Shown here one piece after another: positions 1 through 18,074 of a stretch of DNA of 19,547 nucleotides; position 1 is the stretch's first letter, and every line of letters starts with the position of its first letter. This DNA is from a virus (taxonomy: Duplodnaviria; Heunggongvirae; Uroviricota; Caudoviricetes): IMG/VR virus record IMGVR_UViG_2574180220_000004, one strand, 5' to 3'. The translations under genes were made by a program, and so were the position numbers. The notes beneath the pieces were generated by a model, which saw only the letters and a program-made list of their open reading frames with translations, did no database searches and was not told the DNA's origin.

Positions 1-1236
1 CTACGATAACCGCGCATTCAACATGGCTATCTGTTCGTCGTTCATGTCATCAATCCACATACCGTAAATTTCATACACCATCTGCGCAGTTTCATGCCCC
101 ATTTGGCTGGCTATAAATGCCGGGTTCGCTCCTGCCGTCAACAGCCAGCAGGCAAAAGTATGCCGCGTATGGTACGGATTACGACGGCGAATACCAGCAC
201 GTTTTACTGCTGCATTCCACCTTGCCCCCAAACTGCTTACCGAGTAATAAGGTTTTTGTTTTCCGTTACACACCCTGGGCATGAAAACAAAATGCAGTTT
301 TTGCTTTTCGGTTCTGCCGTACTCCCGATGATAAAAGGTGATTTCGCTTTTGCGATGATGCCCGGTCAGTTTGTATTGCTCCTTCAGTGTTTCAAGAGCA
401 GGCTGCAGTAGTGTTACTGTCCGGATCCCGGCATTTGTTTTTGGGGGACCGAACATATCAAGTATCGTCAGGTTTCTTCTGACATTCACTATTCCCTTTT
501 CGAGATCCACATCCTCCCACGCCAGAGCTGCCAGTTCCCCGTGACGAAGTCCTGAGTAAACGGCAAATTTCCACAAGTTCTGGCTCTGTCCTTTTTCACT
601 TTCCATTAATGCATTGAATTCTGTTTTAGATAACGGATCAGGCTTTATTCTGTTTCGCTGTAATTTTTTTACTCCTTCAAATGGTTTGGTTGATATAAAT
701 CCCGACTGATACGCAAAACGCAACAGCGAACAGAGCAGGGCGATATAGTTATCAACTGTGCGCACGGTTCTTCCTTTTTTGTTGGATCTTGGATTATCCA
801 GGTAAAGCGTTTCTCCATGCAGCAGTTCATTCCGGTAGTTTAAGATATCGCTATAACGAATATGTGATATCGGGGTACTTTCACAAATTATTATTCTGAG
901 TGTTTTTAATTGTGATTTTGTTTTCTTCATTGTGTTTGTTGTTAACTCTGTCTCTTTAATTTTTGTCCAGATATCACAAAGCTCTCCGAACGTTTTTATG
1001 ACTCTCGTTGTCACCATTTTTGCCCCAGTGCTGGACTGGGGAAAACGTCTTAAATACTCAAATTCACCGGAGTTTATTTCATGAACTATCAGCGCTCTTA
1101 AATTTCCGGCCTTTTTAATATTACTGTTTGTAATCTCCCAGCCTTTTAATGTTTCCCGACATCGTTTTCCTCGAAACATGAACCAGATGCGAATGTATCT
1201 ACCTCTAATCTCGACACCTGTTGGTAATTTAGACAT
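1..1236 (-). CDS. intR: Prophage integrase (tyrosine recombinase, lambda-Int family)
   Basis: 411-aa ORF; ATG at 1236..1234 and TAG at 3..1 read directly. The translation matches my recollection of Rac IntR, with a C-terminal HTRHTF...YEIYG catalytic-region pattern. First gene of an int-xis-recombination operon. Confidence 0.93.
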   Translation of the reverse strand: MSKLPTGVEIRGRYIRIWFMFRGKRCRETLKGWEITNSNIKKAGNLRALIVHEINSGEFEYLRRFPQSSTGAKMVTTRVIKTFGELCDIWTKIKETELTTNTMKKTKSQLKTLRIIICESTPISHIRYSDILNYRNELLHGETLYLDNPRSNKKGRTVRTVDNYIALLCSLLRFAYQSGFISTKPFEGVKKLQRNRIKPDPLSKTEFNALMESEKGQSQNLWKFAVYSGLRHGELAALAWEDVDLEKGIVNVRRNLTILDMFGPPKTNAGIRTVTLLQPALETLKEQYKLTGHHRKSEITFYHREYGRTEKQKLHFVFMPRVCNGKQKPYYSVSSLGARWNAAVKRAGIRRRNPYHTRHTFACWLLTAGANPAFIASQMGHETAQMVYEIYGMWIDDMNDEQIAMLNARLS

Positions 1237-1237
1237 A

Positions 1238-1453
1238 TCATGAGTCTTTGATAAACTGATTTATCTTTGGATAGTTGTACCAGATAATCCCTCGTTTGCT
1301 GTCTGGCTTACCTAAAGGAGATACTCGTTTGAAGTGGAAGCCCTCCACCCAACAGTTCTGGCGGTATGCTTCAATTTGTCTGGCCCCCAGACCAGTGCGA
1401 AGCATCAGGCCGTATTCAACCATCCACTCTTCATTAAAGATTACTTGTGCCAT
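1238..1453 (-). CDS. xisR: Excisionase-like protein (YdaQ/XisR-like), 71 aa
   Basis: Start taken at the internal ATG (1453..1451) preceded by GAGGTGA; the track ORF begins at an upstream TTG. Lies immediately upstream of int with near-abutting stop and start. Sequence [10 protein letters not shown]... recalled as Rac YdaQ. Confidence 0.8.
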
Positions 1454-1531
1454 CGCATCACCTCTGGCAGGCGCCAATGTTAGACTGAAATTGACGCCCG
1501 ATGTTGATTATTAATAATCAGCTATGAAGTT

Positions 1532-1741
1532 TTAATTTGAATACAATGCAATTCTCGAGGACTGAAGTTTCTCGCAATTAAAATTTATCAGTTTTACTTT
1601 CTGCTCTCTGGAAACGCCTGCTTCTTTTTTACCTGAGAGCATTTTTTCGCATTCTGATTTCGTTAGTTTAGATTTTGAATATCTTGTCCAGTTAGTAGGA
1701 GTGCCACCTTCCTTTTCAATAGTGGCGGTAATTTTATACAT
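1532..1741 (-). CDS. ydaC: Small Rac-prophage protein, YdaC-like (69 aa)
   Basis: ORF 1532..1813 trimmed to the ATG at 1741..1739 (MYKITATIEKEGG...). Its 5' end overlaps the 3' end of ralR by 8 nt. Confidence 0.7.
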   Translation of the reverse strand: MYKITATIEKEGGTPTNWTRYSKSKLTKSECEKMLSGKKEAGVSREQKVKLINFNCEKLQSSRIALYSN

Positions 1742-1928
1742 GAACACCTCCATTATTATTTCCAGTGGTTCGTTTATTCCGTCTTTCGAGTGCTTCTTTT
1801 TCACTTCCACCATAACCGGTTCGGGATTCGCATCCGTTACACTTCGCTCGGTAATATCCTGAAATGGCTTTCACCGTTACTGATGGACAACCACAAAATG
1901 GACATGGTTTAACATTGTCATATCTCAT
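1734..1928 (-). CDS. ralR: RalR (Lar), small Cys-rich protein; type I toxin / restriction alleviation, 64 aa
   Basis: ORF 1734..1967 trimmed to ATG at 1928..1926 (MRYDNVKPCPFCGCPS...CNGCES...). Cys4-type motif; position upstream of recT as in Rac. Confidence 0.82.
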   Translation of the reverse strand: MRYDNVKPCPFCGCPSVTVKAISGYYRAKCNGCESRTGYGGSEKEALERRNKRTTGNNNGGVHV

Positions 1929-1984
1929 AATTTTTCTCATAAAAAATATTTCAAGTTGGCGGTGCATTACACCGCCAGGCTGAA

Positions 1985-2794
1985 TTATTCCTCTGAATTA
2001 TCGATTACACTGTATTCCCCGGTTAATACAGAGGAATCTGCAGGATCGATTGTCAGTGGTTCCTTTTCATCCATTGATACTGCACGCTGGATCTCAATTG
2101 ATACGGGCAGATATTTGAACAGGCGACGAATAGCCGTTTTCTTTGCCATTTCTTCCCAGTGAGTTACCCACGGCCCGTTATTACCAGCTTTACTCAGGCT
2201 GCGCACCAGCTCAATCTGTTTGCGCGTCATAACTTCAAACTGAGTACCTCCGTCTTTCAGTCTTGCGACAGCATAGACGTGGGTAACCGGGGCATCTTCG
2301 TTTTCTCCCGGGCGGTGTATTAACTTTTCATCAAGGCCAAATTCGAAGCTAAACTCGTCACCTTCACGGACAACACGGGCTGACAGGCTGGCGATTTGAC
2401 CAGAACGGCGAGCCAGATCAATCATGCCGCGATAGCCAATGATTAGCTGAACGTTCTTTTTACCGCTCTTTTCGTTTTTATTACCAAAAGGCAGTAAATA
2501 TGCATGACCGAGGGCGCTACCTGGCTCAAGTCCGAGCTGTGAACACTGTACGATCGCACTGACAAAACTCATAGTGTCACAGTTTCCTAACGCCGGAACT
2601 TTACGAATTTCTGTGGTGGCGATACGGATCATACGTTCAGCCGTCATATGGCGTGGAAGAGCTGCTGCCAGTTGCTCTTTCATTGATGGCTGGTTAATAA
2701 AACTAATCACGTCGCTATTTTTAACTGCTGCTGGTGCACGGTTTCCCTGAGTTTTTTGCAGATCGGCTTTTGCGATTGGTGGTTGCTTAGTCAT
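1985..2794 (-). CDS. recT: RecT single-strand annealing recombinase, 269 aa
   Basis: ORF trimmed to ATG 2794..2792 ([13 protein letters not shown]...), matching recalled RecT. Its start overlaps the recE stop (2787..2789). Confidence 0.93.
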
Positions 2795-5387
2795 TTGCAT
2801 ATTCCTTAGCCCAGCGGGGCAGTGATAATGTCTTAATAGCTGGCCATTCATCGGTATTCAGGCAGTCAGACAGGGTTCGCAGATTGCGGTGATATTCCTG
2901 TTGACCTGTCAGTTTTGCTTCTTCGCCCATCATGAAAATTTCAACCGGATAACGTCCGCATTCAATAGTTGTGCTGGCAACCAGAAAAACGAAAGTTGGC
3001 TGCACTCCAAACTGTGCTTCATAACCGTCACTGTAGAATGCATCCTGAACGTGATAGCGGTAGTCGTAATAAGCGGTTTTGAATCGTTGAATATCCGCCG
3101 TAGTTTTCACGTCCATGATCCAGTGAAATTCAGGGATAATTTTGTCCGGACGGCACCGACACAAAATTCCTGTTTCAGGATCTTCCCAGTAAATTGATGA
3201 TTCAGCGTGTCCGGCGCTTTCAACAAGCCATTGCCCCAGCGGCAAAGCCATAACGCTTTGATACATGAGTTCAATTTTCCGGCCTTCTTCCGCAGTGATA
3301 ACCGTTTTTCCTGTGCTTGCGCATTCCATCAGAAACGCCTTCTCTTCTTCTTTTCCGGCGTTTGTACGGCGGTTAAATTCAGGTGCTACGATAAAGCGGT
3401 TACTGAATTCCTCCGGTTCAAGTACCCGGCAGTGGAAAGCGGTTCCTAAATCGAGCGTTTTTGTCTTTGTGGTGTCCACGGGGGCATTTTTACGCCACAA
3501 ATATAGTGCCGGAGTATCAGCAATGTCATCGAGCTGAGACTTACTGACACCGGGACCCGCATGGTAATTCTCATTCGAAATTCCGTAATAAATACCTGGC
3601 TCTATGTCTTCTACGATTACGGGATCTGCGACTTCGCCAGTTTCATCACTGCAATCGCGATGCGGATCGCTGCCAGCATTCTCATTGTGCGGATGTTCAG
3701 CGCCTTCCATTTCCTCCGGATCATTTTCCTTAGCTTCAACCTGACTCTCTTCATCGAATGTTTCCTGGTATGTTGCGTCGCCCATCACCGCACCACAGTC
3801 AGGGCAGTTACCCCCGCCAGTCTGGCCGCAGGCATTGCAGGCTATTTCCGGTTCCTGTTGCACTACTGGCTCAGGTTGATTCATATCCGGGCTGGTTTTT
3901 TCCGTTTCTGGCTGGTTCTGGTACACACAATCGCGAGTCTGGATCCCATTTACCCATTTCGGATCGTTCGGGTCGCTAATTCCGTCAACAAATTCACCAC
4001 GTGATGCAGCAAGCAATTTATCGGCATCGACAGGATTTTTTGATGGAATGTTTTTCCGGGCTTCATGGAGTTCTGCCCGCAGTTCCTGATATTTCGCATC
4101 AACAGAATTTACCTGTGACTGAGCATCCAGCGGCTGCGTGTCCTGATGATGTTCAGTTGCGTCCGGTTCCATTGTTTCAGCCTCTCCCTGTTCAACTGCC
4201 GTTGTTCCAGATGGTTGCGGTTTTTCTTCATCATCCTGTTTTCCTTCTTCTGTTACTCGCTGCGGCATCGGGGCAGAGGAGCGACCGCAGGCAATATCCA
4301 CGATTTCCGGATCAGGGTTGGCATGATCGGTTTCAGTCAGTACTTTGTTCAGATATTCAGTGACGTGCGCGGGGATGACCTCGATCCCAATTGGTGCTTC
4401 TTTTACGGACGCAACCACGATGGCGCGGGAATAATCCAGCCCGCCAGGCATGGTGATGAATTTGTCGCGGAAAACAGAAAAGGGCGGTTTATTTTCAGCG
4501 ATAATTTCCTCAATGCGTTTAGCGTGTGCCGGATGAAGGTTATAGATGTCCAGATCCATTGAACGGGCCAGTACGCCAGTGGCTACGTCGCGCGCCAGTG
4601 ACGTCAGATCGTGTACGAAACCTTCGCCGCGATCGGTGAGGTTTCCGCCGCCAGCATTAGCACCGGAAGCCGTGCGAGTGATGTGTGAAACACGATTACC
4701 CTTCATCCACTCTTTTGTCAGCAGTCCTCGATCGGTGTAGTCAGCGTTCAGGTATGCTTCGAAAAAAGCAGTTATCAGTCCCAGGTTTGAATTACCAGGA
4801 TTAGGGAAAACTTTGTCAGTGTCACGAACCAGTTTGTGGAGTTCGCGAATTTCCAGCGGGTCGAGCAGGCTGGTTTTGTGGGAAACAGCCAGGGCAGTAA
4901 CAGCCGGTAGTTCTTCAGCCCGAGCAATGTGTAATGCCTGGAGTCCGTCGCGTGAAACGTGCGTTACCGGTTTTTCGCTGCCGTGTTGAGCAAGCCAACG
5001 AATGGGCAGTTCCTGGCCAGAAATTGGGAGTAGCATATTCTCCTCAATCTCAGTCATGTCTTCGCCGTTGACGTTGGTATTGCCTTGATAGTGAGCGTTG
5101 TCTGGTGCTGCTCCCGGTTTTAGTTCCCATGTCATGGAGTCTTTGCTGAGTTGATAGCGTTCACTCCAGGTAAAATCGATCTCACCTTCAGCGGGCAGGT
5201 CATTAACGACAGGAAAATTCGTGGCAACAGCTTTAAAATAGCTGCTCAGTTTTTTACCTGACTTAACGATCAGGTAGTCCAGAGTGGCACAGGTCGATTC
5301 AAAATCGTTGCTTGCCCACAGGACGACGTCAGGTTCACCGGATGATTTTTTCGCTTTCCGTAACAGGAAGAGTGGTTTTGTGCTCAT
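2787..5387 (-). CDS. recE: RecE exonuclease VIII, 866 aa
   Basis: 866-aa ORF with ATG at 5387..5385; acidic low-complexity central region and C-terminal nuclease domain as recalled for RecE; coupled to recT. Confidence 0.93.
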
Positions 5388-5488
5388 TGTTTTTTAACCT
5401 CAACTCAGATTAAAATTCGTTTTGTTCAGTGAATGATCTTGCCGGATACACACTGTTCATAGCCTGCGCCATACGCAGGCTATTTCTT

Positions 5489-5764
5489 TCAGATTTCACC
5501 TTTTAATTTCATTGCAATTAGAGTTGCCAGAAATTCGGCTTTATTTTCTGCGGGCAGATTCTTTCCGATATGCACCAGGCACATTTTTTTGACACCTTCA
5601 TCAAGTGTTTTTACGTTGCCTGATGGACCATCGATATCAACCACAGTGAATGGGGTTTCTTTATTTTCTGTTTTAATTACGTAGCCAATGCGCTTTCCTT
5701 CCAGATTCACCTCGTGAACAATGTCATCGGTAGTTACAACAGTGGCTTCATAATTGGTAATCAT
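5489..5764 (-). CDS. racC: RacC-like small protein, 91 aa
   Basis: ORF 5489..5812 trimmed to ATG at 5764..5762 (MITNYEATVVTTDD...). Confidence 0.8.
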   Translation of the reverse strand: MITNYEATVVTTDDIVHEVNLEGKRIGYVIKTENKETPFTVVDIDGPSGNVKTLDEGVKKMCLVHIGKNLPAENKAEFLATLIAMKLKGEI

Positions 5765-5838
5765 GTTTTTCTCCTTAATTAAGGTTGAGCGAATACCTGC
5801 CATTTCTGGCATAAATTCAGTTTCGAATAGTCAATTAA

Positions 5839-6009
5839 TTAAAGTTCATGTGCCATCTGGTCTTTTTCGGCACAAGCTTCACTGCAATATTTTCTCGGTT
5901 CGTCTTTTGATAAAATCCCGTGCATAAAGTGAAGCATTCTTTCAATAGCTTTGCTTTCTTCAACGTCTTTTTTGCAAAGGTGGTAAGCACATTTTATTTT
6001 CTTAGTCAT
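5839..6009 (-). CDS. ydaE: YdaE-like Cys/His-rich small protein, 56 aa
   Basis: Not in the ORF track (under 60 aa); translated by hand as [56 protein letters not shown]. Its ATG (6009..6007) overlaps the kilR stop by 1 nt (TGATG). Confidence 0.7.
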   Translation of the reverse strand: MTKKIKCAYHLCKKDVEESKAIERMLHFMHGILSKDEPRKYCSEACAEKDQMAHEL

Positions 6010-6230
6010 CACCATGACTCCGCCTTTACAGGTAAACCATCACGACCGAGGAAGACTTTAATCATGCGGTCAGTAATGCATGTTTTTGTGGTCAGGTTAC
6101 GAATATATAGTTTTCGCTTTTTAATATTGTTTGCCGAGGCAATATATGTCCGGCCTTCATGAAGAACATAGTCACCAGGAGTCACACACTGACGTGGTAT
6201 TTCATCAGTTCCGAAGTGATGTGCAATCAT
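6009..6230 (-). CDS. kilR: KilR-like killing/division-inhibitor protein, 73 aa
   Basis: ORF 6009..6242 trimmed to ATG 6230..6228 ([15 protein letters not shown]...) preceded by GGAG. Position in the early-left operon between racC/ydaE and the immunity side. Confidence 0.82.
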
Positions 6231-6401
6231 AATTATCTCCATTTTTACAAATGAACTTTGTTGATGCGGTGCCTGGTGCCTCCAGGTGACTGCAACCAGT
6301 TAACAATTACAGTCGGCTTCCCCACCCAAACCAATAAGGACTAACATGACTTTTAACTGTGCCGCGTGCGCTTAGCTGCATTCATCGCATCACAAAATTC
6401 A

Positions 6402-6452
6402 CTTTAAAAAGGGCGGACATCAGTCGAACTTCAAGAAAAAACTGATGCCGCC
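6402..6452 (-). terminator. Candidate intrinsic terminator (minus strand): 11-bp stem with one bulged A, 18-nt loop, then CTTTTT
   Basis: Arms at 6412-6423 and 6442-6452. On the minus-strand transcript the hairpin is followed directly by a U-tract (plus-strand AAAAAG at 6405-6410). Confidence 0.4.
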
Positions 6453-6650
6453 AAGACTACACACAGCAGTGTTGTTATTCACAACCGGAGGCGCACTCCC
6501 ACCATTTAAATTTAACAGACAAGACCGACTCTTTATGGATATCGGAAATGCGCCTTCGTGTTGTGCCCGGTTTTATTTCACCACCTCCGGGCTTTGGTGG
6601 TTTCTGCTATACCCCTACAGCGAGAATATTGAATTAATCCAAATAATGGA

Positions 6651-6803
6651 TTAGCAAGTATTTCTGGCAAGCCAGCGACGTGCGCCTGTTTCTGTTTTAA
6701 ATGTTTTGCTTTTGGTATACGTCATAGCAGTGAACGTTCCATCTTGGTTGGGGAACACGCCGCACACCATGGATTCGTTATTGCCGAGGTCGATTTTTTG
6801 CAT
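6651..6803 (-). CDS. Small hypothetical protein (50 aa) at the head of the early-left transcription unit
   Basis: ATG at 6803..6801 preceded by GAGGTG, the internal Met of track ORF 6651..6929 (MQKIDLGNNESMVCGVFPNQDG...). Family not recognised with confidence; the upstream extension is probably not translated. Confidence 0.45.
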   Translation of the reverse strand: MQKIDLGNNESMVCGVFPNQDGTFTAMTYTKSKTFKTETGARRWLARNTC

Positions 6804-7021
6804 TTTTCGCACCTCACATCTTGTTGTTGCGGATACGGGAGCTGGAAAAATTCCGCCAGCAGGGTTTTTCACCTGAGCAGGTGATTCGACACAGCATCGC
6901 CAATGAATACCAGGGCTTGTTCGCGCCAAAAGGTGTTCGACCTGAGACGTTACTCCGACAGGTTAACACCGTCTCGTTACCGGATAGTGCGATCCCGCCA
7001 GGCTTCAGGGGGTAACTGACC

Positions 7022-7768
7022 ATGAAAAATATTGCGGCAGGCGGCATTCTTGAACGTATCCGCAGACTGGCCCCGCCACATGTAACCGCCCCATTCAAAA
7101 CGGTAGCGGAGTGGCGCGAGTGGCAACTTTCCGAAGGCCAGAAACGTTGTGAGGAGATCAACCGTCAGAATCGTCAGTTGCGGGTGGAAAAAATTCTGAA
7201 TCGCTCTGGCATCCAGCCATTGCACCGCAAATGCTCGTTTGCGAATTACCAGGTGCAGAACGACGGTCAGCGATACGCGTTGAACCAGGCGAAATCTATC
7301 GCTGATGAACTGATGACCGGGTGTACAAATTTTGCGTTCAGCGGAAAACCTGGTACCGGAAAAAACCATCTGGCGGCGGCTATCGGGAATCGCCTGCTGA
7401 AAGATGGCCAGACAGTGATTGTGGTTACCGTGGCTGATGTCATGAGTGCTCTACACGCCAGCTATGACGACGGGCAATCAGGCGAAAAATTTTTGCGGGA
7501 ACTGTGCCAAGTGGATCTGCTGGTTCTTGATGAAATTGGCATTCAGCGCGAGACAAAAAACGAGCAGGTGGTGCTGCACCAGATTGTTGATCGCCGGACA
7601 GCGTCGATGCGCAGCGTGGGGATGCTGACAAACCTGAACTATGAGGCGATGAAAACATTGCTCGGCGAGCGGATTATGGATCGCATGACCATGAACGGCG
7701 GACGCTGGGGGAATTTTAACTGGGAGAGCTGGCGTCCGAATGTCGTCCTGCCAGGAATTGCGAAGTGA
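7022..7768 (+). CDS. ydaV: DnaC-like replication protein (AAA+ helicase loader), 248 aa
   Basis: Walker [18 protein letters not shown] and Walker B LLVLDEIG read directly in the translation; matches recalled Rac YdaV. Confidence 0.9.
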
Positions 7769-7790
7769 TTTTTACCGGGAGGAAATTTTA

Positions 7791-8552
7791 ATGGAGACTG
7801 TTTTTGACGCACTGAAAGCAATGGGAAAAGCCACGTCGGTAGAACTGGCTGCGCGACTTGATATCAGTCGTGAAGAGGTACTGAACGAGCTGTGGGAACT
7901 GAAAAAGGCTGGTTTCGTTGATAAAAGCGTATACATCTGGCGTGTGGCTGATAACAACGTTCAGCAGGAACAGCCAGAGCAGGCAGAACTGCCGGAAGAA
8001 ACCACCACGGCAACAGTCGCAAAAATTTCGGAGTGCGATTTAACTGCGACGATTGAACAACGTGGCCCACAAACGGCGGATGAACTGGCTACGTTTTTCG
8101 GCATCACATCACGCAAAGTGGCTTCAACGCTGGCAATGGCAATCAGTAAAGGTCGTCTGATTCGCGTTAATCAGAACGGTAAATTTCGTTACTGCATGCC
8201 GGGCGATAATTTACCAGCAGAGCCGAAAGCTGCATCGGTAGCGGAAACTGATGGTAAAGCCTTTCCTCAGCCAGCCGGTGTTGCGTTACCAGCACAGGAA
8301 GCGGCAACACAGGAAGAAATTAAAACAGATACTATGGGGGACATTGTGCAGTCACTACCATCGTTCACTGAAACGCGAGCCAATGACCTGATTTTACCAT
8401 CGCTGCATATGGCAAACCGCGAACTGCGCCGGGCGAAAAGTCATGTCCAGAAGTGGGAGCGAGTCTGCGCCGCGCTGCGTGAGTTGAACAAGCACAGGGA
8501 TATTGTACGACAGATTACTGATTCTTCCCGCCATGTTGCATCGGAAAAGTGA
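7791..8552 (+). CDS. Hypothetical protein with two winged-helix-like DNA-binding segments (YdaW-like), 253 aa
   Basis: Start taken at ATG 7791 preceded by GGGAGG; track ORF begins upstream at 7740, overlapping ydaV. Two HTH-like stretches ([21 protein letters not shown] and [19 protein letters not shown]). N-terminus resembles the truncated Rac ydaW product as I recall it. Confidence 0.65.
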
Positions 8553-8567
8553 TTGCCGGAGGCACCT

Positions 8568-8990
8568 ATGGCAAAAGCATTTACACCAGAAGAGCGGGAA
8601 AAAATTAAAGGGCAGGTTGTTGAACTTGTACGTCTGAGCGGTCGCGAGACGTTACGGCAACTGGAAGCCAAGACAGGTGCGACAAGATGTCTGATGAGTG
8701 TTCTCGCCAGTGAGCTGGTTGCCAGTGGCGATGTATACAACTCTGGTTACGGGTTATTCCCGTCTGAACAGGCGCGTAAAGACTGGCAAAACGCCCGCAA
8801 AAAACTATCGAGGGCAAAGGTGAAGAAACCTGCTGTAGTTGATCCGGACCTTATCTGGTCATTACCAGACGGAGAAATACGCCGCTATGACAGGCGTCTG
8901 AATATAATCTGTCGCGAGTGCCGGAAGAGCGAAGTCATGCAGCGTGTACTGGCGTTCTATCAGGGTAATTTTCAGGATGTGCTGTTGTGA
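8568..8990 (+). CDS. Hypothetical phage protein, 140 aa
   Basis: ATG at 8568 with GGAGG 6 nt upstream; track ORF begins at a TTG at 8553. No confidently recognised domain. Same operon as the preceding gene. Confidence 0.6.
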   Translation: MAKAFTPEEREKIKGQVVELVRLSGRETLRQLEAKTGATRCLMSVLASELVASGDVYNSGYGLFPSEQARKDWQNARKKLSRAKVKKPAVVDPDLIWSLPDGEIRRYDRRLNIICRECRKSEVMQRVLAFYQGNFQDVLL

Positions 8991-9150
8991 GCCAAATTAA
9001 CAATCAGGGAACTGCGTGAACTGAAAGAGAAATCATAATCCAAATCTGAATAATTAAATTTAGCACTGTAAATAAAATTTAATCCTTAACCGGAGGGGGG
9101 GCTGCACCCTCAAAATATTAGGAGGCGGCCCGAAAGGGCGGTAATGAAAA

Positions 9151-9654
9151 ATGACTGAATTAACCAAAAAGCAATTAATCGAAGAAGCTAAATTAAAAAT
9201 AGCGATTGAGAAATGCCACCCCAATTCAGGGATGGCACGGGTAGAGGGCGAATTATTCAAAATTGCTCTGGCATCGCTGGAAGCAGAGCCAGTTGGTGAT
9301 TTTTATGAATACAAACCGGATGACTGGTATCAGCGTTCGGCTGGAGATAAAGCGCCAAAATGGACGCCACCCTATGCCGTTTTTCCAGCGCCCGTAGTGC
9401 CGGAAGAAATGGATTTGCTTACATGCCATCTCGATGGTGTAACTGAAACATATGCTGAGGGATGGAACGCTTGCCGCGCTGCCCTGCTTCAGGGCAAAGG
9501 GGAGCCCGGGAAACAAGTTCGCGAATTGACAATGCTGGTTAAACAATTGGTTAGTCAACTGAAGAAAGCGAAACCGGGCTGCAAATTGCCGGATAAAGTG
9601 ATGGACTACCTGGAGCGAAGCGGACTTATAAGCGTGGAGGATGTTTTACGATGA
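9151..9654 (+). CDS. Hypothetical phage protein, 167 aa
   Basis: Clean ORF with ATG at 9151; a GCCC-GAAA-GGGC tetraloop hairpin sits in its 5' leader (~9127-9138). No recognised domain. Confidence 0.6.
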   Translation: MTELTKKQLIEEAKLKIAIEKCHPNSGMARVEGELFKIALASLEAEPVGDFYEYKPDDWYQRSAGDKAPKWTPPYAVFPAPVVPEEMDLLTCHLDGVTETYAEGWNACRAALLQGKGEPGKQVRELTMLVKQLVSQLKKAKPGCKLPDKVMDYLERSGLISVEDVLR

Positions 9655-9734
9655 CCTGGCCTGAAGCATTCACAACGGTAGGAATTGCGATGGCGGTGGC
9701 GCTGGTGGTGTATTCGATTTGCCGCTGGGGTTGA
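9651..9734 (+). CDS. Candidate 27-codon hydrophobic micro-protein (MTWPEAFTTVGIAMAVALVVYSICRWG)
   Basis: ATG overlaps the upstream stop in an ATGA arrangement (9651-9654); single predicted transmembrane-like segment; followed by a hairpin. Below the ORF-track size cut-off. Confidence 0.3.
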   Translation: MTWPEAFTTVGIAMAVALVVYSICRWG

Positions 9735-9747
9735 TAATACTAAATAA

Positions 9748-9766
9748 CCAGCCCTTATGGGGCTGG
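9748..9766. terminator. Hairpin between convergent genes (stem CCAGCCC/GGGCTGG, loop TTATG)
   Basis: Inverted repeat read directly; sits between the end of the plus-strand operon (9734) and the stop of the minus-strand KilA-N gene (9775). Flanking sequence is more U-rich for the minus-strand transcript. Confidence 0.45.
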
Positions 9767-9774
9767 CTAATCAT

Positions 9775-10548
9775 TTAGAACTGTTCATTGCCATCGAGGT
9801 TAGGTAGCATAATTTTTTCAATCAAGGCGAGAGCCTTTTTGTCCCGGTCAGCGAAGTATTTCGGGGCATATTGCGGCAACCAAATATTGTTAAAATGTTC
9901 TTTGAAATCTGCTAAATATTCATTTGGGTACAGCCTTGCAGGGTATACGCGACCATCGGGATATTCATGGTCATAGGTAGGGAATGTTTTGGGTTCTACG
10001 TTTCTATTATCTCTTAACCATTGTGAAAATACTCTTCCTTGTGAAATGTCAGGAACCATTTTTTCTGGGAGTGTGTACCCTGCTTGTTCAAGAGGTGCAA
10101 CCAAGTTGAATGTCAGTTCATTAAGAATAGAAAAGTGCGTGTGAGGAATTCTACTACGATTAACCATGTACCGTTTTAAATGTACAGGCATTTCTGCTGT
10201 AGTTCTTTCCCCTGACATCCATTCACGAACCCATCTTGAAACCTGGACTGCAAATTTGGGCGATAGCCACTGCGCTAGATTAATAGCGATGTCAGGATGC
10301 ACCCATGTCCCTTGGTTTTCAGGTCTTCCACCTTTAAATGATTGAATTAACTCCGATATGGGAATTCCCATATCGCGTGATAATTCGTCAAAAAACTCTT
10401 GAGTAGTTTTGAGTCTAGTGTAATCAGAGAGCAGTTTGCCCGCAGTTCTACACATTGATGTGGCGTTTATGTAACCATCTTTGGCACGTAAATGTATTAT
10501 TTCGCCGTCAATTTCACGAGAAATCAAAGATAATTGAAAGGATGTCAT
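9775..10548 (-). CDS. KilA-N domain protein, 257 aa, with uncharacterised C-terminal half
   Basis: N-terminal ~100 aa carry the KilA-N/APSES-type signature (DGYINATSMCRTAGKLLSDYTRLKTTQEFF...WVHPDIAINLAQW). ATG 10548..10546 with GAGGAA 7 nt upstream. Convergent with the replication operon. Confidence 0.8.
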   Translation of the reverse strand: MTSFQLSLISREIDGEIIHLRAKDGYINATSMCRTAGKLLSDYTRLKTTQEFFDELSRDMGIPISELIQSFKGGRPENQGTWVHPDIAINLAQWLSPKFAVQVSRWVREWMSGERTTAEMPVHLKRYMVNRSRIPHTHFSILNELTFNLVAPLEQAGYTLPEKMVPDISQGRVFSQWLRDNRNVEPKTFPTYDHEYPDGRVYPARLYPNEYLADFKEHFNNIWLPQYAPKYFADRDKKALALIEKIMLPNLDGNEQF

Positions 10549-11070
10549 TGAAAATTCCTCAAGTTGGAGAGTTCTGGAACATTAAGGCGAGGTGGCAGTA
10601 ATGCACCATCTGTAATCTTTTGATACTGACGTAATCGGGCCTGATGTGCAACGCCTTGCAAGTATGTAACTCATTGAAAACGATCATTTTTATCTATTGA
10701 CATCAAATGGCAAACTGTCATTGTGCGGCTATGGCAAGTGGCAAATGCTTATAAATCATATGGATATAAATGGTACAGAAAGAGTTGTTTTCTCTAGGAT
10801 ATGAGTATACGCCCAATGCTGATTGGTTGAATTTTGTTCTTGTTTTAAAGGGTAAGAGTTTAAAGTGTTGGCAGTGATGTATTGGATAGTTAGAATTGCT
10901 GTGGGTGCTTGAGGCTATCTGCCTCGGGCATGAACACCAAAGGTAGATAGAGAAAAGCCCCAGTTAACATTACGCGTCCTGCAAGACGTTTAACATTAAT
11001 CTGAGGCCATATCTATGCGACACATAGAGATTAGCCTCTTACGGACCGAAAGGTCAAGGAGAAGCAGGCT

Positions 11071-11196
11071 ATGAAGCAGCAAAAGGCGATGTTAATCGCC
11101 CTGATCGTCATCTGTTTAACCGTCATAGTGACGGCACTGGTAACGAGGAAAGACCTCTGCGAGGTACGAATCCGAACTGGCAGACGGAGGCTCTGA
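11071..11196 (+). CDS. Hok/Gef-family type I toxin homologue, 41 codons, apparently C-terminally truncated
   Basis: MKQQKAMLIALIVICLTVIVTALVTRKDLCEVRIRTG matches the conserved Hok/Gef N-terminus and transmembrane segment; AAGGAG SD 9 nt upstream. ORF stops after TGRRRL; the family-conserved GQTE is encoded in the +1 frame. Confidence 0.6.
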   Translation: MKQQKAMLIALIVICLTVIVTALVTRKDLCEVRIRTGRRRL

Positions 11197-11278
11197 TTCG
11201 TAGACTACTAATCTGAGTAAAAGACCCAGCGGGGAAAGAACCACGCCGGGACTAGTTAATAAGATATTTATAGCGTGG

Positions 11279-11644
11279 CTATTCTTTTTTTGCGGTATAG
11301 ACTTTTTCGCCTGAGAAGTCTGGAGCTACCCAAAAGTTAATATTAAACTGAGCATCATCGCTTAGTTCAACACGGTGCCAGTATTGTGGTGGGCTTGTTG
11401 CAAAAGCGCCAGCATTAATGACTACTTTTATCTCCGGTTCAGTAGCATTCTCATCAGCAAAACCATAATATGTTACAGTACCTTCCATCACGCATAACTG
11501 TCCAAAAACACCTGCTGCTGTATTATGATGTGTTAATAACGCTGAAGGTACGTTCTCTTTTGTGAAGAACGGAGTTGAGCGTTTGATTACCCAGTCTTTA
11601 GGAATTCTCTTGTGTGTCATAACCACCCCCCATAAAACATGCAT
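11279..11644 (-). CDS. Small cupin-like protein (possibly DUF1971-type), 113-121 aa
   Basis: ORF with two candidate starts (ATG 11644 or ATG 11620, both with SD-like sequence). Family assignment is from memory and uncertain. Confidence 0.6.
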   Translation of the reverse strand: MHVLWGVVMTHKRIPKDWVIKRSTPFFTKENVPSALLTHHNTAAGVFGQLCVMEGTVTYYGFADENATEPEIKVVINAGAFATSPPQYWHRVELSDDAQFNINFWVAPDFSGEKVYTAKKE

Positions 11645-11987
11645 TATAAATGCACCTTTTTGAGGGTTATGTCAAGCTGTTATGAAACACATAATTGATA
11701 TGTTGATTAGAGGAGAAGATAGAATCAATATGGTTGTTTTTCGTATAACTATTTGTTTTACTTTTAGTTTGTGCATTCTGTGTGTTAGGAATAACTTATT
11801 AAAGTTTAACTAAAAAATCTCGATATAGTCCGCATAGATTACTGTTACTGAATCTTATTGTGTGCATTAGTTGTGTTCTGAAATTTCAATTTAATTACTT
11901 ATGATATATTTTTAACGATAAATGTTTTCCGGGTGAAAGACAGTGGGGGATGAGATAAGCAATATATCATTAATCTTGATTATTTCC

Positions 11988-12049
11988 AGGATGCCTTTAC
12001 TGTGCATATAAATAAATCATATACGCATCAAATAATGTAAAGGCATCCT
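11988..12049. repeat. 13-bp perfect inverted repeat (AGGATGCCTTTAC / GTAAAGGCATCCT) with 36-nt AT-rich spacer
   Basis: Arms at 11988-12000 and 12037-12049 read directly; followed by TTTT on the plus strand. Lies inside the AT-rich ORF-free spacer. Confidence 0.55.
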
Positions 12050-12487
12050 TTTAGATATATCTTATCAAATGTTAATGATTTGAGTGGGAAACATGATTCC
12101 AGAAACTAATCATGCGGCTACTTTATAAAAATAATGCCCATATAAAACAGCCAGCGAAAAGGATTACGGATAAAAAAGGAGCGAGATGTGCATAGTTGTT
12201 ATTTTCCATGTTTAACCACCTTAAATAATTGATGATGACGGGATGTGCATCTGTAATGCTTTTGTTGAAATGTTATGATAAAAAAGAACTTTTTCATAAC
12301 ATTAAAATGTAATTTATCTAATCGTTTTTAATAATAAGTGTTGTATTTCTATCCTTGTATCAGCTATTTGATATGTAGTGTTTGTTCATGTTATGTGGAG
12401 CTTTACACCATAGCCAGTTTATTTATACTTTATTCGTCAGCCTGAACAACTGGCATCTGCTGCACTGCGCCATCGAGAGATTGAGAA

Positions 12488-13087
12488 ATGGCGCATATAC
12501 AACTGGTCAAACAAACCTCTTCTGGACTACTTCTCCCGGCGACGCCGGAGAGTTGCGATTTTTTGCATCAAATCAAAATAGGCGAGTGGATACACGCAGA
12601 CTTTAAGCGTGTGCGTAACTACGCATTCCACAAGCGTTTTTTCAAACTCCTGCAACTGGGATTCGATTACTGGACTCCGGTCGGTGGGGCGATCACGCCT
12701 CGCGAACGAAAGCTGGTTTCAGGATTCGTTGATTACCTATGTGAATCAGTAGGCCGGGAACATACGCCAGCTCTGAGCGAAGCCGCAGAGCAATATCTGA
12801 ATACAGTTGCGACACGCAGAACCCGGGATACGGCATTGCTAAAGTCGTTTGAGGCTTTTCGCGAGTGGGTAACCATTCAGGCTGGATTTTACACCGAACA
12901 TTTTTATCCGGACGGTAGCCGCGGGCGTCGGGCAAAATCTATCGCTTTTGCGAATATGGACGAAACCGAGTTTCAGCAGGTTTATAAATCTGTTCTGAAT
13001 GTGCTGTGGAACTGGATTCTGTTCCGTAAATTTTCCTCTCCGGAACAAGTCGAAAATGTGGCCGCGCAGCTGCTGGAGTTTGCGTAA
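12488..13087 (+). CDS. Conserved nin-region phage protein, 199 aa (DUF1367-like, uncertain)
   Basis: ATG at 12488; stop overlaps the next start (TAATG at 13085-13089). Position and operon structure typical of lambdoid nin genes. Confidence 0.7.
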   Translation: MAHIQLVKQTSSGLLLPATPESCDFLHQIKIGEWIHADFKRVRNYAFHKRFFKLLQLGFDYWTPVGGAITPRERKLVSGFVDYLCESVGREHTPALSEAAEQYLNTVATRRTRDTALLKSFEAFREWVTIQAGFYTEHFYPDGSRGRRAKSIAFANMDETEFQQVYKSVLNVLWNWILFRKFSSPEQVENVAAQLLEFA

Positions 13088-13377
13088 TGGTGGATTTACG
13101 TAAAGCGGCGCGGGGGCGGATGTGCACCGTCAGAATTCTTGGCTACTGCAATCACGATCCGGAAACGTCTGTGCTGGCGCATTACCGACTGGCGGGAACG
13201 TGCGGAACAGCGACAAAACCACACGATATGCAGGCGGCGATTGCCTGTAGCTCATGCCACGATTTAATCGACGGGCGGGTAAAAACAAGCGATTACACCA
13301 AAGAAGATTTACGCCTGATGCATGCAGAAGGTGTTTTTCGCACGCAAGAAATCTGGAGAAAGGAAGGTTATTTATGA
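13087..13377 (+). CDS. YbcO-like Cys-rich nin-region protein (DUF1364-type putative nuclease), 96 aa
   Basis: MVDLRKAARGRMCTVRILGYCNHDPETSVLAH...CSSCHD with Cys cluster; resembles recalled DLP12 YbcO. Coupled to both neighbours. Confidence 0.75.
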   Translation: MVDLRKAARGRMCTVRILGYCNHDPETSVLAHYRLAGTCGTATKPHDMQAAIACSSCHDLIDGRVKTSDYTKEDLRLMHAEGVFRTQEIWRKEGYL

Positions 13378-13916
13378 TTTACCCAACAAATACAGGCAAA
13401 AGCGGGGAACACCTTCGTCTCACCACGCTGGAAAGTGTCTGGATTCAGGGAAAACTGCGCATGTGGGGGCGCTGGTCGTATATTGGCGGCGGTAAGACGG
13501 GGAATATGTTCAACCAGTTGTTGGCCTCTAAAAAGCTGACAAAAACGGCAATTAACGAGGCGCTCCGGAGGATGAAAAAAGCAGGTCTGAACAAGTCTGA
13601 ACTTGAGGCTTTTTTGCGGGATATGATTAACGGTAAGCAAAAGAGCTGGCTGGCGCATTGTACTGATGCAGAGGCGTTATGTATTGATCGGGTCATAAGT
13701 GAGGTGCTGGTAGAGCATCCAGGATTGATTAGCGTCCTTCGGCAACGGTATGAGGGGCGGGGGATGACCAAACGCAAAATGGCTGAATTGCTAAATGATG
13801 CACACCCAGAGTGGTGTTTTAGCACATGCGAAAAGCGAATTGCTAATTGGTTGGCCGTTGCTGAGTATGCGCTATACATTCCCATGCGAGAATCATTCGC
13901 TCAAAAAACGGCTTGA
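13374..13916 (+). CDS. Putative late-gene antiterminator Q-like protein, 180 aa
   Basis: Start at ATG 13374 (ATGA overlap with the upstream stop). Last gene before a terminator, the tRNA genes and the lysis cassette. W-G-x-W-rich N-terminal region resembles Q-family proteins as recalled; weak. Confidence 0.5.
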   Translation: MIYPTNTGKSGEHLRLTTLESVWIQGKLRMWGRWSYIGGGKTGNMFNQLLASKKLTKTAINEALRRMKKAGLNKSELEAFLRDMINGKQKSWLAHCTDAEALCIDRVISEVLVEHPGLISVLRQRYEGRGMTKRKMAELLNDAHPEWCFSTCEKRIANWLAVAEYALYIPMRESFAQKTA

Positions 13917-14003
13917 TTTTTTACGCATAAACTGCTTCAATTTTGCTACGCTTCGCAAAGCTGTATCGCGAGGCGAATCAAGCGCAATTAAACTTTAATA
14001 GAA

Positions 14004-14029
14004 CCCGCCATCAAGCGGGTTTTGTTGTT
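14004..14029 (+). terminator. Intrinsic terminator (CCCGC-CATCAA-GCGGG then TTTTGTTGTT)
   Basis: Read directly; about 90 nt downstream of the Q-like stop, compatible with a tR'-like element. Confidence 0.6.
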
Positions 14030-14039
14030 ATTGTGGTGT

Positions 14040-14200
14040 GATATAAGAAACGACATTTAATATTGCCTTCAAAATAAATTTGTTTATATATTGTCGCGTA
14101 TATTTTAAGTGAAGGTGAAATGTTCACATAAAATAAAAATACATAAATAAATTTACATAGCTTGACGCAAAGTGTTGTTGCGATTGGAATATTAAATTGT
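14040..14200 (+). promoter_or_regulatory. AT-rich UP-like region with a TTGACG -35-like hexamer (14162-14167) upstream of the tRNA genes
   Basis: Very AT-rich tract followed by TTGACG; no convincing -10 at canonical spacing could be assigned by eye. Confidence 0.3.
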
Positions 14201-14268
14201 ATCATCGAAAACGGTTCTGAGGGGGAACTCTTCTTTGCTCGGTGATATCGCTCCCCTGAAGAACCAAT

Positions 14269-14344
<76 letters not shown>

Positions 14345-14347
14345 TAT

Positions 14348-14423
<76 letters not shown>

Positions 14424-14428
14424 TTAGA

Positions 14429-14554
14429 GTCTTTCAGTCTGCGATGATGGGAAATCCCGGAGTGACTGAAAGACGTTTAAGTTATGAATGATCGCTTTTT
14501 TTTGCAAAATTGCTGTGCAGAAATACTAACCTTCGGGCAGGCGATCATTCATAA
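14429..14554 (+). repeat. Two perfect inverted repeats with large loops in the tRNA trailer (11 bp at 14429-14439/14464-14474; 14 bp at 14482-14495/14541-14554)
   Basis: Arms read directly and reverse-complemented by hand; loops of 24 and 45 nt. No ORF over 15 codons in this stretch. Confidence 0.55.
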
Positions 14555-14629
14555 GCACTCTGCTTTTATTCCGATTAACTGTGGGTGGTTTGTTGGATAG
14601 AGTGCTTTCCTTACTGTATATATTGTTTC

Positions 14630-14654
14630 GCCCGCTTTTGCGGGCTTTTCTTTT
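14630..14654 (+). terminator. Strong intrinsic terminator (GCCCGC-TTTT-GCGGGC then TTTTCTTTT)
   Basis: Perfect 6-bp GC stem, 4-nt loop and U-tract; about 60 nt upstream of the holin RBS. Confidence 0.8.
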
Positions 14655-14714
14655 CAAATCCCTTTCATTTCTCAGTGTAAAACTAAGCCATCCGTTATTT
14701 GCGGAGGTGAGGCT

Positions 14715-14930
14715 ATGAAATCCATGGACAAAATTTCAACGGGCATTGCCTATGGCACCTCCGCAGGCAGTGCTGGCTACTGGTTTTTACAGTGGCTTGA
14801 TCAGGTCAGTCCGTCACAGTGGGCTGCGATTGGTGTGCTGGGGAGTCTGGTTCTGGGCTTCCTGACTTATCTGACAAATCTGTACTTCAAAATCAGAGAA
14901 GACAAGCGTAAGGCTGCACGGGGAGAGTAA
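14715..14930 (+). CDS. Class II pinholin, phage-21 S type, 71 aa with dual start
   Basis: [28 protein letters not shown]... matches recalled S21; two in-frame starts (ATG 14715 and ATG 14724); GGAGGTGA SD; two transmembrane segments. Confidence 0.9.
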
Positions 14931-14934
14931 TTCA

Positions 14935-15285
14935 ATGACTCAAAACTATGAACTGATTGTGAAAGGGATCCGCAATTTTGAGAATAAAGTTACGGTAACT
15001 TTAGCGTTACGGGACAAAAAACGCTTTGACGGTGAAATTTTTGACCTGGACATCTCGCTGGACCGTGTTGAAGGTGCCGCGCTGGAGTTTTATGAGGCAG
15101 CAGCCAGAATGAGCATCAGACAGGTCTTCCTGGATGTTGCTGCCGGGTTATGTGAAGGGGATGAGCAGTCGCCGGAAAAGCGCCCCGTAATTTTAGAGGC
15201 GCAGAATGTATGGATAACCTACAAAGGAAAGCTACCGGGAAGAATTACTGGTTCTCTGAAGACTCCTCCGGAATCACAACCTTAA
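14935..15285 (+). CDS. Small protein between holin and endolysin (YdfR/DUF1327-like), 116 aa
   Basis: ATG 14935 with GGGAGAG SD immediately after the holin stop. Resembles the Qin-prophage ydfR position and sequence as recalled. Confidence 0.65.
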   Translation: MTQNYELIVKGIRNFENKVTVTLALRDKKRFDGEIFDLDISLDRVEGAALEFYEAAARMSIRQVFLDVAAGLCEGDEQSPEKRPVILEAQNVWITYKGKLPGRITGSLKTPPESQP

Positions 15286-15348
15286 GTCACTGACCGGAAC
15301 AGATAAACCTGTCCGTGGGCAGAAACCGATAAATCCTGATAAATATCC

Positions 15349-15882
15349 ATGAACGCAAAAATCAGATACGGCCTGTCGGCTGCCGTTCTGGCACTGATTG
15401 CCGTCGGTGCGCCCGCGCCTGATATTCTCGACCAGTTTCTGGATGAAAAAGAAGGTAACCACACAACGGCATACCGCGATGGGTCCGGCATCTGGACCAT
15501 CTGTCGGGGTGCCACGATGGTGGATGGAAAACCCGTTTTTCCCGGTATGAAACTGTCGAAGGAAAAATGCGACCAGGTCAACGCCATTGAGCGTGATAAG
15601 GCGCTGGCATGGGTGGAGCGCAATATTAAAGTACCACTGACCGAGCCACAAAAAGCGGGTATAGCGTCATTCTGTCCCTATAACATTGGCCCCGGTAAGT
15701 GTTTCCCGTCGACGTTTTATAAGCGGCTGAATGCCGGTGATCGTAAGGGCGCATGCGAGGCGATTCGCTGGTGGATAAAAGATGGTGGGCGCGATTGCCG
15801 CATACGTTCAAATAACTGCTATGGACAGGTTATTCGTCGTGACCAGGAAAGCGCATTAGCCTGTTGGGGGATAGAGCAGTGA
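15349..15882 (+). CDS. SAR endolysin (T4-lysozyme-like muramidase, R21 type), 177 aa
   Basis: N-terminal signal-anchor-release segment ([16 protein letters not shown]) followed by the E...D...T catalytic region ([23 protein letters not shown]). Confidence 0.9.
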
Positions 15883-16343
15883 GCAGAGTCGCCGCGATTA
15901 TTTATGCTTTGGTTATCTGCATCATCGTCTGCCTGTCGTGGACGGTCAATCATTACCGTGATAACGCCACCGCCTACAAAGAGCAGCGCGACAAAAATGC
16001 CAGAGAACTGAAGCTGGCGAACGCGGCAATTACTGACATGCAGATGCGTCAGCGTGATGTTGCTGCGCTCGATGCAAAATACACGAAGGAGTTAGCTGAT
16101 GCGAAAGCTGAAAATGATGCTCTGCGTGATGATGTTGCCGCTGGTCGTCGTCGGTTGCACATCAAAGCAGTCTGTCAGTCAGTGCGTGAAGCCACCACCG
16201 CCTCCGGCGTGGATAATGCAGCCTCCCCCCGACTGGCAGACACCGCTGAACGGGATTATTTCACCCTCCGGGAACGACTGGTAATGATGCAGGCCCAACT
16301 TGAAGGTGCTCAGCAATACATAACCGAACAGTGTTTAAAGTAA
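15879..16343 (+). CDS. Rz i-spanin, ~154 aa
   Basis: Start assigned to GTG 15879 overlapping the endolysin stop (GTGA); N-terminal transmembrane segment and coiled-coil-rich periplasmic domain; matches recalled Rz-like sequences. Confidence 0.85.
16099..16284 (+). CDS. Rz1 o-spanin lipoprotein embedded in the +1 frame of Rz, 61 aa
   Basis: Signal peptide with lipobox LVVVGC; proline-rich mature part ([15 protein letters not shown]); AAGGAG SD 7 nt upstream. Confidence 0.82.
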
Positions 16344-16429
16344 AATCTTAACTACAATATGATTCATTTTGATGATTGTTTCATAAGGAACAGTGAAGTA
16401 AGATCTAAGAGGAGTTAAATTTTATACAG

Positions 16430-16435
16430 TATAAT
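16430..16435 (+). promoter_or_regulatory. Consensus -10 hexamer TATAAT upstream of trkG
   Basis: Perfect TATAAT followed by AAGGTGG SD (16450-16456); no good -35 found by eye. Confidence 0.25.
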
Positions 16436-16480
16436 CATAATATTGCAGCAAGGTGGTTATAATTGAAAGAATATTTAGAT

Positions 16481-17937
16481 ATGAATACATCTCATGTAAG
16501 AGTTGTTACTCATATGTGTGGGTTCCTGGTTTGGCTCTATAGTCTTTCAATGTTGCCACCAATGGTTGTAGCATTGTTTTATAAAGAAAAAAGCCTGTTC
16601 GTTTTCTTTATAACTTTCGTTATATTTTTTGTATTGGTGGCGGAGCGTGGTATACAACTAAGAAATCTGGCATTCAATTACGTACCCGTGATGGGTTTAT
16701 TATAATTGTAATGTTTTGGATTTTGTTTTCTGTTATTAGTGCATTCCCTTTATGGATTGACTCAGAACTTAATTTAACGTTCATTGATGCTCTGTTTGAA
16801 GGGGTTTCTGGAATAACAACAACAGGAGCAACTGTAATTGATGATGTTAGTTCATTACCTCGGGCATATTTGTACTATCGGTCACAGTTAAATTTTATAG
16901 GTGGTTTAGGAGTTATTGTTCTGGCGGTTGCTGTATTGCCATTATTGGGTATTGGTGGTGCAAAGCTTTATCAGTCAGAAATGCCGGGGCCATTTAAGGA
17001 TGACAAACTCACTCCCCGCCTGGCCGATACGTCACGGACACTGTGGATAACTTATTCTTTATTAGGTATTGCTTGTATTGTCTGTTATAGACTTGCAGGA
17101 ATGCCTTTGTTTGATGCTATTTGTCACGGGATTTCCACAGTTTCGCTTGGTGGTTTCTCAACTCATAGCGAGAGTATCGGATATTTTAATAACTATTTGG
17201 TTGAGCTGGTGGCTGGTTCTTTTTCCCTGCTATCGGCTTTCAACTTCACTCTTTGGTATATTGTTATTAGCAGGAAAACGATAAAACCTTTAATCAGAGA
17301 TATTGAACTTCGTTTCTTTCTGTTAATAGCCTTAGGGGTGATCATTGTTACCTCTTTCCAGGTCTGGCATATAGGTATGTATGACTTGCATGGAAGTTTT
17401 ATTCATTCGTTTTTTCTTGCCAGCTCCATGCTCACTGATAATGGTTTAGCTACGCAGGATTATGCAAGCTGGCCCACGCACACGATAGTGTTTTTGCTGT
17501 TGTCAAGTTTCTTTGGGGGATGTATAGGTTCAACTTGTGGTGGAATTAAGTCACTTCGATTTCTTATACTTTTCAAACAAAGCAAACACGAGATAAATCA
17601 GCTTTCTCATCCCAGAGCGTTGTTGAGTGTAAATGTAGGAGGGAAGATAGTTACAGATCGTGTAATGAGGTCTGTATGGAGTTTCTTTTTTCTTTATACT
17701 CTCTTCACGGTGTTTTTTATACTGGTGTTAAATGGTATGGGATATGATTTTCTTACATCATTTGCAACAGTGGCTGCATGTATTAATAATATGGGATTAG
17801 GTTTTGGGGCTACTGCATCGTCATTCGGAGTGCTTAATGACATTGCAAAATATTTAATGTGCATAGCTATGATTCTTGGTCGCCTTGAAATTTATCCTGT
17901 TATTATATTGTTTTCAGGTTTTTTTTGGCGCTCCTAA
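16481..17937 (+). pseudogene. trkG: TrkG-type potassium transporter subunit, reading frame broken by an apparent 1-nt loss in a T-run (16625-16630)
   Basis: The N-terminal 49 residues (MNTSHVRVVTHMCGFLVWLYSL...) are in one frame that stops at 16705; the rest (from about 16630: ...RTRDGFIIIVMFWILFSVIS...GITTTGATV...) continues in the +1 frame as track ORF 16711..17937. Confidence 0.75.
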
Positions 17938-18074
17938 TATATGGCTGATTTATAATTGTGAGTTTAATATTATGTTGACTCACTCATTGATCCAATACCT
18001 AACTTTACCAGCAACACCTCCGCCCCCAGTAGCACTGGCTGCTGGGGTGCGTTTTATTCATAAAGCAAGGATGT

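Follow-up and report, generated by a model that had tools for sequence, protein, structure and literature searches.

A probable single deletion of the immunity switch and initiator domain in an Escherichia coli Rac-type prophage

The interval between kilR and ydaV, at positions 6231-7021 of the 19,547-nt stretch of DNA analysed here (the window), is very probably the scar of one deletion (we would put the probability at roughly 0.92), which arose by illegitimate recombination at the tetranucleotide GATA and left the 3' end of ydaG fused to ydaU at codon 226. Every base of the interval was explained by homology (the kilR leader with KilS, the sieB-less joint, ydaF, the tail of ydaG and the tail of ydaU), with the following features in the interval and at its borders:

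6009-6230, minus strand: kilR, encoding the FtsZ-inhibiting Kil protein; intact, 73 aa, no internal stops, one amino acid difference from K-12 KilR; the K-12 annotation lies at the same coordinates; left boundary of the interval
about 6406-6502, minus strand: gene for the DicF-like KilS sRNA, in the 5' leader of kilR; ortholog of the K-12 ncRNA gene kilS (b4833)
6405-6452, minus strand: intrinsic terminator of KilS (hairpin and U-tract), with a 13-pair stem at 6412-6452 followed by CUUUUU; 3' end of KilS
6626-6671, no strand: 46-bp segment replacing a 554-bp sieB segment of K-12 Rac; a common sieB-less allele
6651-6803, minus strand: ydaF, intact; Pfam DUF1391, E 3e-28
6814-6835, minus strand: 3' remnant of ydaG, the last six codons (IRNNKM) and the stop codon
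6832-6835, no strand: deletion junction, 4-bp microhomology GATA, present in both parents
6836-7015, plus strand: 3' remnant of ydaU (O-like replication initiator), codons 226-285 and the stop codon; DUF1376 domain gone
7022-7768, plus strand: ydaV, intact, encoding a DnaC/IstB-like helicase-loader ATPase; Pfam IstB_IS21, E 7e-20

Judged from its sequence, the window is a Rac-type lambdoid cryptic prophage of E. coli. Rac of K-12 MG1655 aligned with positions 1-6625 at 99.5% identity with one single-base gap, the window starting at the stop codon of intR, and the order of the left arm (intR-xisR-ralR/ralA-recT-recE-racC-ydaE-kilR) matches that of K-12 Rac. All nine of the protein genes compared in this arm (intR, xisR, rcbA, ralR, recT, recE, racC, ydaE and kilR) are intact, with 0-5 amino acid differences from K-12, and the RalA sRNA, which goes with ralR, scored 225 bits in Rfam. 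The best relative over the whole window among 5426 complete E. coli genomes was UPEC85, whose prophage aligned with positions 6832-18101 at 98.8% identity and adjoins ttcA, which there lies beside intR. On either side of the gap described below, the flanking genes have the same order and orientation as in the intact Rac prophages of K-12, UPEC85 and NWU_3, at 98-99.5% identity; YdaF is identical to its NWU_3 counterpart (100%) and 90% identical to that of K-12, and YdaV is 96% identical to K-12 YdaV.

The right arm of the window holds a 7.7-kb block (8240-15906) that is present in UPEC85 but not in K-12 Rac, and because this block was kept, the right arm is less eroded here than in K-12 Rac. 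Its genes comprise the 3' end of a DUF1627 gene, DUF977, KilA-N, hok/sok, DUF1971, DUF1367, YbcO, a Q-like DUF1133 gene, tRNA-Thr(tgt) at 14269-14344, tRNA-Gly(tcc) at 14348-14422, DUF1327, lysozyme and Rz. The KilA-N domain protein (257 aa; 9775-10548, minus strand), for whose source contig a BstA_C match is recorded, may be the product of a BstA-type abortive-infection defence gene. A type I toxin-antitoxin locus of the hok/sok kind, absent from K-12 Rac, lies at 10903-11196 (Rfam sok, 101.5 bits); a 41-aa Hok/Gef gene was called there in the source contig. Further downstream, trkG (16481-17937) carries a 1-bp deletion in a T-run at about 16624 (six T versus seven in K-12), which puts the reading frame out of register beyond about codon 49 and leaves two ORFs (16463-16705 and 16711-17937); this may reflect a genuine pseudogene or a sequencing error in the homopolymer. 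K-12 and UPEC85 are homologous to the window only as far as 18101, and a long ORF that starts at 18075 and continues past the window end (19547) contains a Peptidase_S74 domain (endosialidase chaperone, tail-fibre type).

An earlier, sequence-only reading of the interval had suspected a deletion of the immunity and initiator genes, and alignment with intact Rac and Rac-like prophages bears this out: 2259 bp (relative to NWU_3) or 2449 bp (relative to K-12) are missing, corresponding to ydaG'-racR-ydaS-ydaT-'ydaU, with both endpoints at the GATA of 6832-6835. Base-by-base comparison with NWU_3, K-12 and Combat13F7 showed agreement with the left parent as far as 6835 and with the right parent from 6832 onwards. 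Relative to NWU_3, which is itself sieB-less, homology on the left ends at window position 6835 (position 5037 of the NWU_3 locus, L002), inside a 44-codon ydaG-type gene, and restarts at window position 6832 (L002 7297), inside ydaU; one single-base gap was found in the left flank, within the kilR-ydaF interval. In terms of the K-12 Rac locus (L003), position 7344 is joined to position 9794, and 7345-9793 are missing, a stretch that in K-12 contains codons 1-38 of ydaG, the ydaG-racR spacer, racR, the racR-ydaS intergenic region, ydaS, ydaT and codons 1-225 of ydaU. The same break was seen against UPEC85 and Combat13F7, and the junction carries no inserted sequence. It is uncertain which immunity type the lost region had, the left flank matching the NWU_3 type and the right flank being mosaic.

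Both broken genes could be recognised by their remaining ends. The ydaG remnant was identified by translation against a 44-aa NWU_3 protein (encoded at L002 5016-5150). The plus-strand ORF at 6821-7015, which stops 6 nt short of the ATG of ydaV (7022) and had been taken for the 3' tail of a lost upstream gene, is exactly that: its residues 5-64 are residues 226-285 of YdaU (60 of 60 identical, i.e., 100%; intact YdaU has 285 aa). PHROG matches of this remnant were confined to the C-terminal ends of replication-initiator and primosomal families. The DUF1376 domain occupies residues 22-104 of intact YdaU and lies outside the part that was kept; in the remnant no Pfam match, and hence no N-terminal DUF1376 domain, was found.

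The junction itself was matched nowhere in the collections searched. The exact 40-nt junction gave no match in species-representative genomes or metagenome contigs, and a 181-nt junction query had no contiguous match in the 5426 complete E. coli genomes; as far as those collections go, the allele is thus confined to its source assembly. That assembly is a draft (GCA_000627835.1), the 163-kb contig JJME01000026.1 of which matches the window exactly over the stretch compared (5400-9000), and the junction was seen in this one draft assembly only, the same contig being on record for two samples. One might thus ask whether the source genome is intact and the draft has collapsed or skipped about 2.3 kb, as the draft (WGS) origin, the absence of the junction 40-mer from complete E. 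coli genomes, species-representative genomes and metagenome contigs, and the trkG homopolymer indel (if it is a sequencing error) would allow. We regard this as very unlikely: the junction lies in the middle of the contig, the flanks share only 4 bp, which is far too little for a collapse by the assembler, no repeat flanks the missing segment, and the contig is recorded for both samples.

In keeping with a real deletion, neither a repressor, nor a Cro protein, nor an O-like initiator is encoded in the 19.5-kb window, which is what the sequence-only reading had noticed where the immunity region should be. The whole window was searched by tblastn (E up to 10) with SieB, YdaG, RacR, YdaS and YdaT of K-12 and with the 139-aa HTH repressor, the Cro-like protein and YdaT of NWU_3, and with both known Rac immunity types nothing significant was obtained (no repressor, Cro, CII or N-terminus of an initiator); the racR-ydaS-ydaT immunity module was found in neither of its two types. 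Ten small ORFs (at least 28 aa) of the region 6231-7161 were also scanned against Pfam (E up to 1) and PHROGs (E up to 0.1). Only YdaF, the 50-codon gene noticed at the outset, and the C-terminus of YdaU were recovered, with no match to an HTH family and no HTH repressor gene divergent from a cro-like gene in that region. A sensitive search for an intact repressor or initiator by Pfam, PHROGs and tblastn thus left the deletion standing.

The control sites disappeared together with the genes. RacR recognises the operator consensus (T/A)TAGGC-n3-GCCTA(T/A), and three such operators lie in the racR-ydaS intergenic region, where ydaS has a strong promoter (TTGACA/TAATAT) (PMC9638921). When the core consensus TAGGC-n3-GCCTA was scanned with at most one mismatch, five sites were found in K-12 Rac (0.36 expected by chance), namely the known OR sites at L003 8272, 8297 and 8323 and two further sites at 7631 and 7656. 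All five, and both early promoters, are located inside the deleted interval, and not a single site was found in the window with up to one mismatch. The two further sites overlap an 11/12-match sigma-70 promoter in the ydaG-racR spacer (TTGACA-17-TATAGT; minus strand, L003 7655-7627), and the region concerned (L003 7627-7674) repeats the ydaS promoter region as an inverted copy of 35 nt. From the promoter match, the operator sites and the inverted copy together we infer a candidate PL/OL-like leftward promoter upstream of ydaG with two RacR operators, of which we found no description in the Rac literature cited here. The 40- to 70-fold rise of ydaG, ydaF, kilR, ydaE and racC on RacR perturbation (PMC11014345) fits a leftward promoter under RacR control.

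The part of the interval next to kilR had been described as about 400 bp without a credible ORF. This description holds as far as proteins are concerned, since no ORF with a Pfam or PHROG match was found in the 408 bp between kilR and ydaF (6243-6650), but the segment is not empty, as it contains KilS. The seemingly empty spacer is thus shown to hold a known sRNA, and the terminator-like minus-strand hairpin recorded there (6402-6452) is real, being the intrinsic terminator of KilS. The K-12 gene (L003 6406-6503, minus strand) corresponds to about 6406-6502 of the window. KilS was predicted from RIL-seq data, verified by northern analysis and classed as a 5'-UTR sRNA of kilR that can use its own promoter, and its 3' end in K-12 was mapped within the U-tract (PMC8175672). 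Relative to K-12, NWU_3 and UPEC85, the window has the orthologous position in the kilR leader, a conserved terminator (predicted at -19.5 kcal/mol, z-score -3.2 for the 115-nt context) and conserved sequence upstream of the mapped 5' end. KilS-homologous segments occur in about 4000 of the 5426 E. coli genomes, with a median of two copies.

KilS is a relative of DicF that falls below the threshold for curated members: in a permissive scan, the Rfam DicF model (RF00039) matched over its full length (1-52) with 42.8 bits (E 1e-8) against a gathering score of 48. It shares with DicF of the Qin prophage the same type of terminator stem-loop and the flanking UUGGCGG.AUCAGUUUU ... ACUGAU...CCGCCC and, as in the dicF-dicB arrangement of Qin, it lies directly upstream of a prophage gene for a cell-division inhibitor (here kilR). 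Its 5' part differs from that of DicF, and yncL, a RIL-seq target of KilS, is not a DicF target.

The presence of this sRNA bears on the proposal, also made in the sequence-only reading, of a non-canonical control scheme, in which a regulatory RNA (KilS) or an antirepressor-type protein in or near the interval has taken over the function of the repressor. The interval does hold a real DicF-like sRNA gene with its own terminator, and the KilA-N/BstA-type protein is encoded 2.7 kb downstream; nevertheless, we consider such a scheme highly improbable. KilS, which was left untouched by the deletion, has the same location in three prophages with a repressor (those of K-12, NWU_3 and UPEC85); it thus belongs to the ordinary make-up of Rac and does not stand in for the repressor. 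The KilA-N gene, in turn, is present in the intact UPEC85 prophage too, the junction brought in no additional sequence, and the very promoters and operators that would have to be controlled are themselves deleted.

Two further differences from K-12 Rac lie outside the junction. The gene sieB is absent, K-12 positions L003 6627-7180 being replaced by the 46 bp at 6626-6671, so that homology to K-12 and UPEC85 stops at 6625 and restarts at 6672. No additional gap appears at this joint when the window is aligned with NWU_3, E2865 and many other genomes; the loss of sieB is therefore a common natural allele, separate from the immunity deletion. The second difference is a cluster of nine transitions at 6320-6480 that are absent from K-12, NWU_3 and UPEC85 (5.6% divergence versus a background of about 0.4%). 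Decay after the deletion was considered for these transitions and rejected, since Rac-like prophages of O26/O103 strains, e.g., E2865, carry the same allele (98.3% identity) and retain the repressor; the segment is a patch of mosaic recombination. That an unrecognised immunity module was swapped in by the same kind of lambdoid mosaic exchange is scarcely credible, for although Rac-like prophages are highly mosaic (with two immunity types and sieB+ and sieB- alleles) and O26/O103 prophages share the mosaic patch that forms the KilS segment of the window, known Rac segments account for all of 6231-7021, leaving no novel sequence to encode a module, and none of the ORFs in the interval matches an HTH family.

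If the interval is the scar of one deletion, as we favour, that deletion removed most of ydaG, the PL-like promoter with its two RacR operators, racR, the promoters of racR and ydaS together with the three OR operators, both regulator genes (the Cro-like ydaS and the CII-like ydaT) and the first 225 residues of the O-like initiator YdaU. The repressor would no longer be needed, because both divergent early promoters would have been lost with it. The leftward operon (ydaF, kilR, ydaE, racC, recE and recT) and the rightward operon (ydaV and the genes downstream) would both be stripped of their regulated promoters, and ydaV would be left with neither an initiator partner nor a promoter. The KilS terminator would further insulate kilR, read-through from the KilS promoter probably being the remaining input. 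Since the DUF1376 domain of YdaU is deleted, the element would presumably be unable to start its own replication, and the Rac element of the source strain should be non-inducible and non-replicating, though its integrase and excisionase genes are intact.

The cell would be expected to escape the lethality of racR loss because one event took ydaS and ydaT as well. In K-12, racR can be deleted only if ydaS and the intergenic region, or ydaS-ydaT, go with it, and cells with an engineered deletion from sieB to ydaU survive although kilR is intact (PMC5700373). [quoted passage not shown]

Taking these points together, we infer from the sequence that the locus is a silenced scar with both operons silent. 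Some transcription toward kilR could still come from the KilS promoter and from a weak promoter-like sequence downstream of ydaF (9/12 match; minus strand, 6670-6643). A promoter and terminator scan of 5900-7900 returned sites no more numerous than in shuffled sequence, and the long-loop KilS terminator was missed by it.

It is tempting to see in the deletion a selected "disarming" event, in which the lethal RacR-YdaS/YdaT switch and both early promoters were lost in one step. In that case the host would have fixed a Rac element that is no longer inducible or able to kill, while keeping as cargo recET, kilR with the DicF-like KilS, hok/sok and the KilA-N/BstA-type defence gene, and KilS would be the sole remaining regulator acting on kilR or cell division. 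We think this unlikely. The allele is private to the assembly, and the kind of event is ordinary prophage decay, which has already been described; its importance extends little beyond annotation. What the deletion adds is a natural, base-resolved case of the published rule that the Rac repressor is lost only together with ydaS/ydaT.

The intact Rac switch (racR/ydaS/ydaT/ydaU-ydaV, as in K-12, UPEC85 and NWU_3) is a functional analogue of lambda cI/cro/cII/O-P with OL and OR. Compared with it, the window lacks the repressor, the five operator sites, the PL-like and PR-like promoters, the Cro-like and CII-like regulators and the DUF1376 initiator domain. The K-12 deletions engineered by Krishnamurthi et al. 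in 2017 (sieB-to-ydaU, and the minimal racR-IGR-ydaS; PMC5700373) likewise removed the repressor, the operators/promoters and ydaS/ydaT together and left kilR intact, whereas the deletion in the window is natural and ends inside ydaG and ydaU at a 4-bp microhomology. [quoted passage not shown] This sieB-less variant keeps the nin region, the Q-like gene and the lysis cassette, which K-12 Rac no longer has. The replication/immunity block has been inactivated independently in E2865, where an IS3 is inserted in ydaU, and in Combat13F7, with fused and truncated ydaS/ydaU pseudogenes; both of these prophages retain the repressor gene, whereas the window appears to have lost the repressor and both early promoters in one event.
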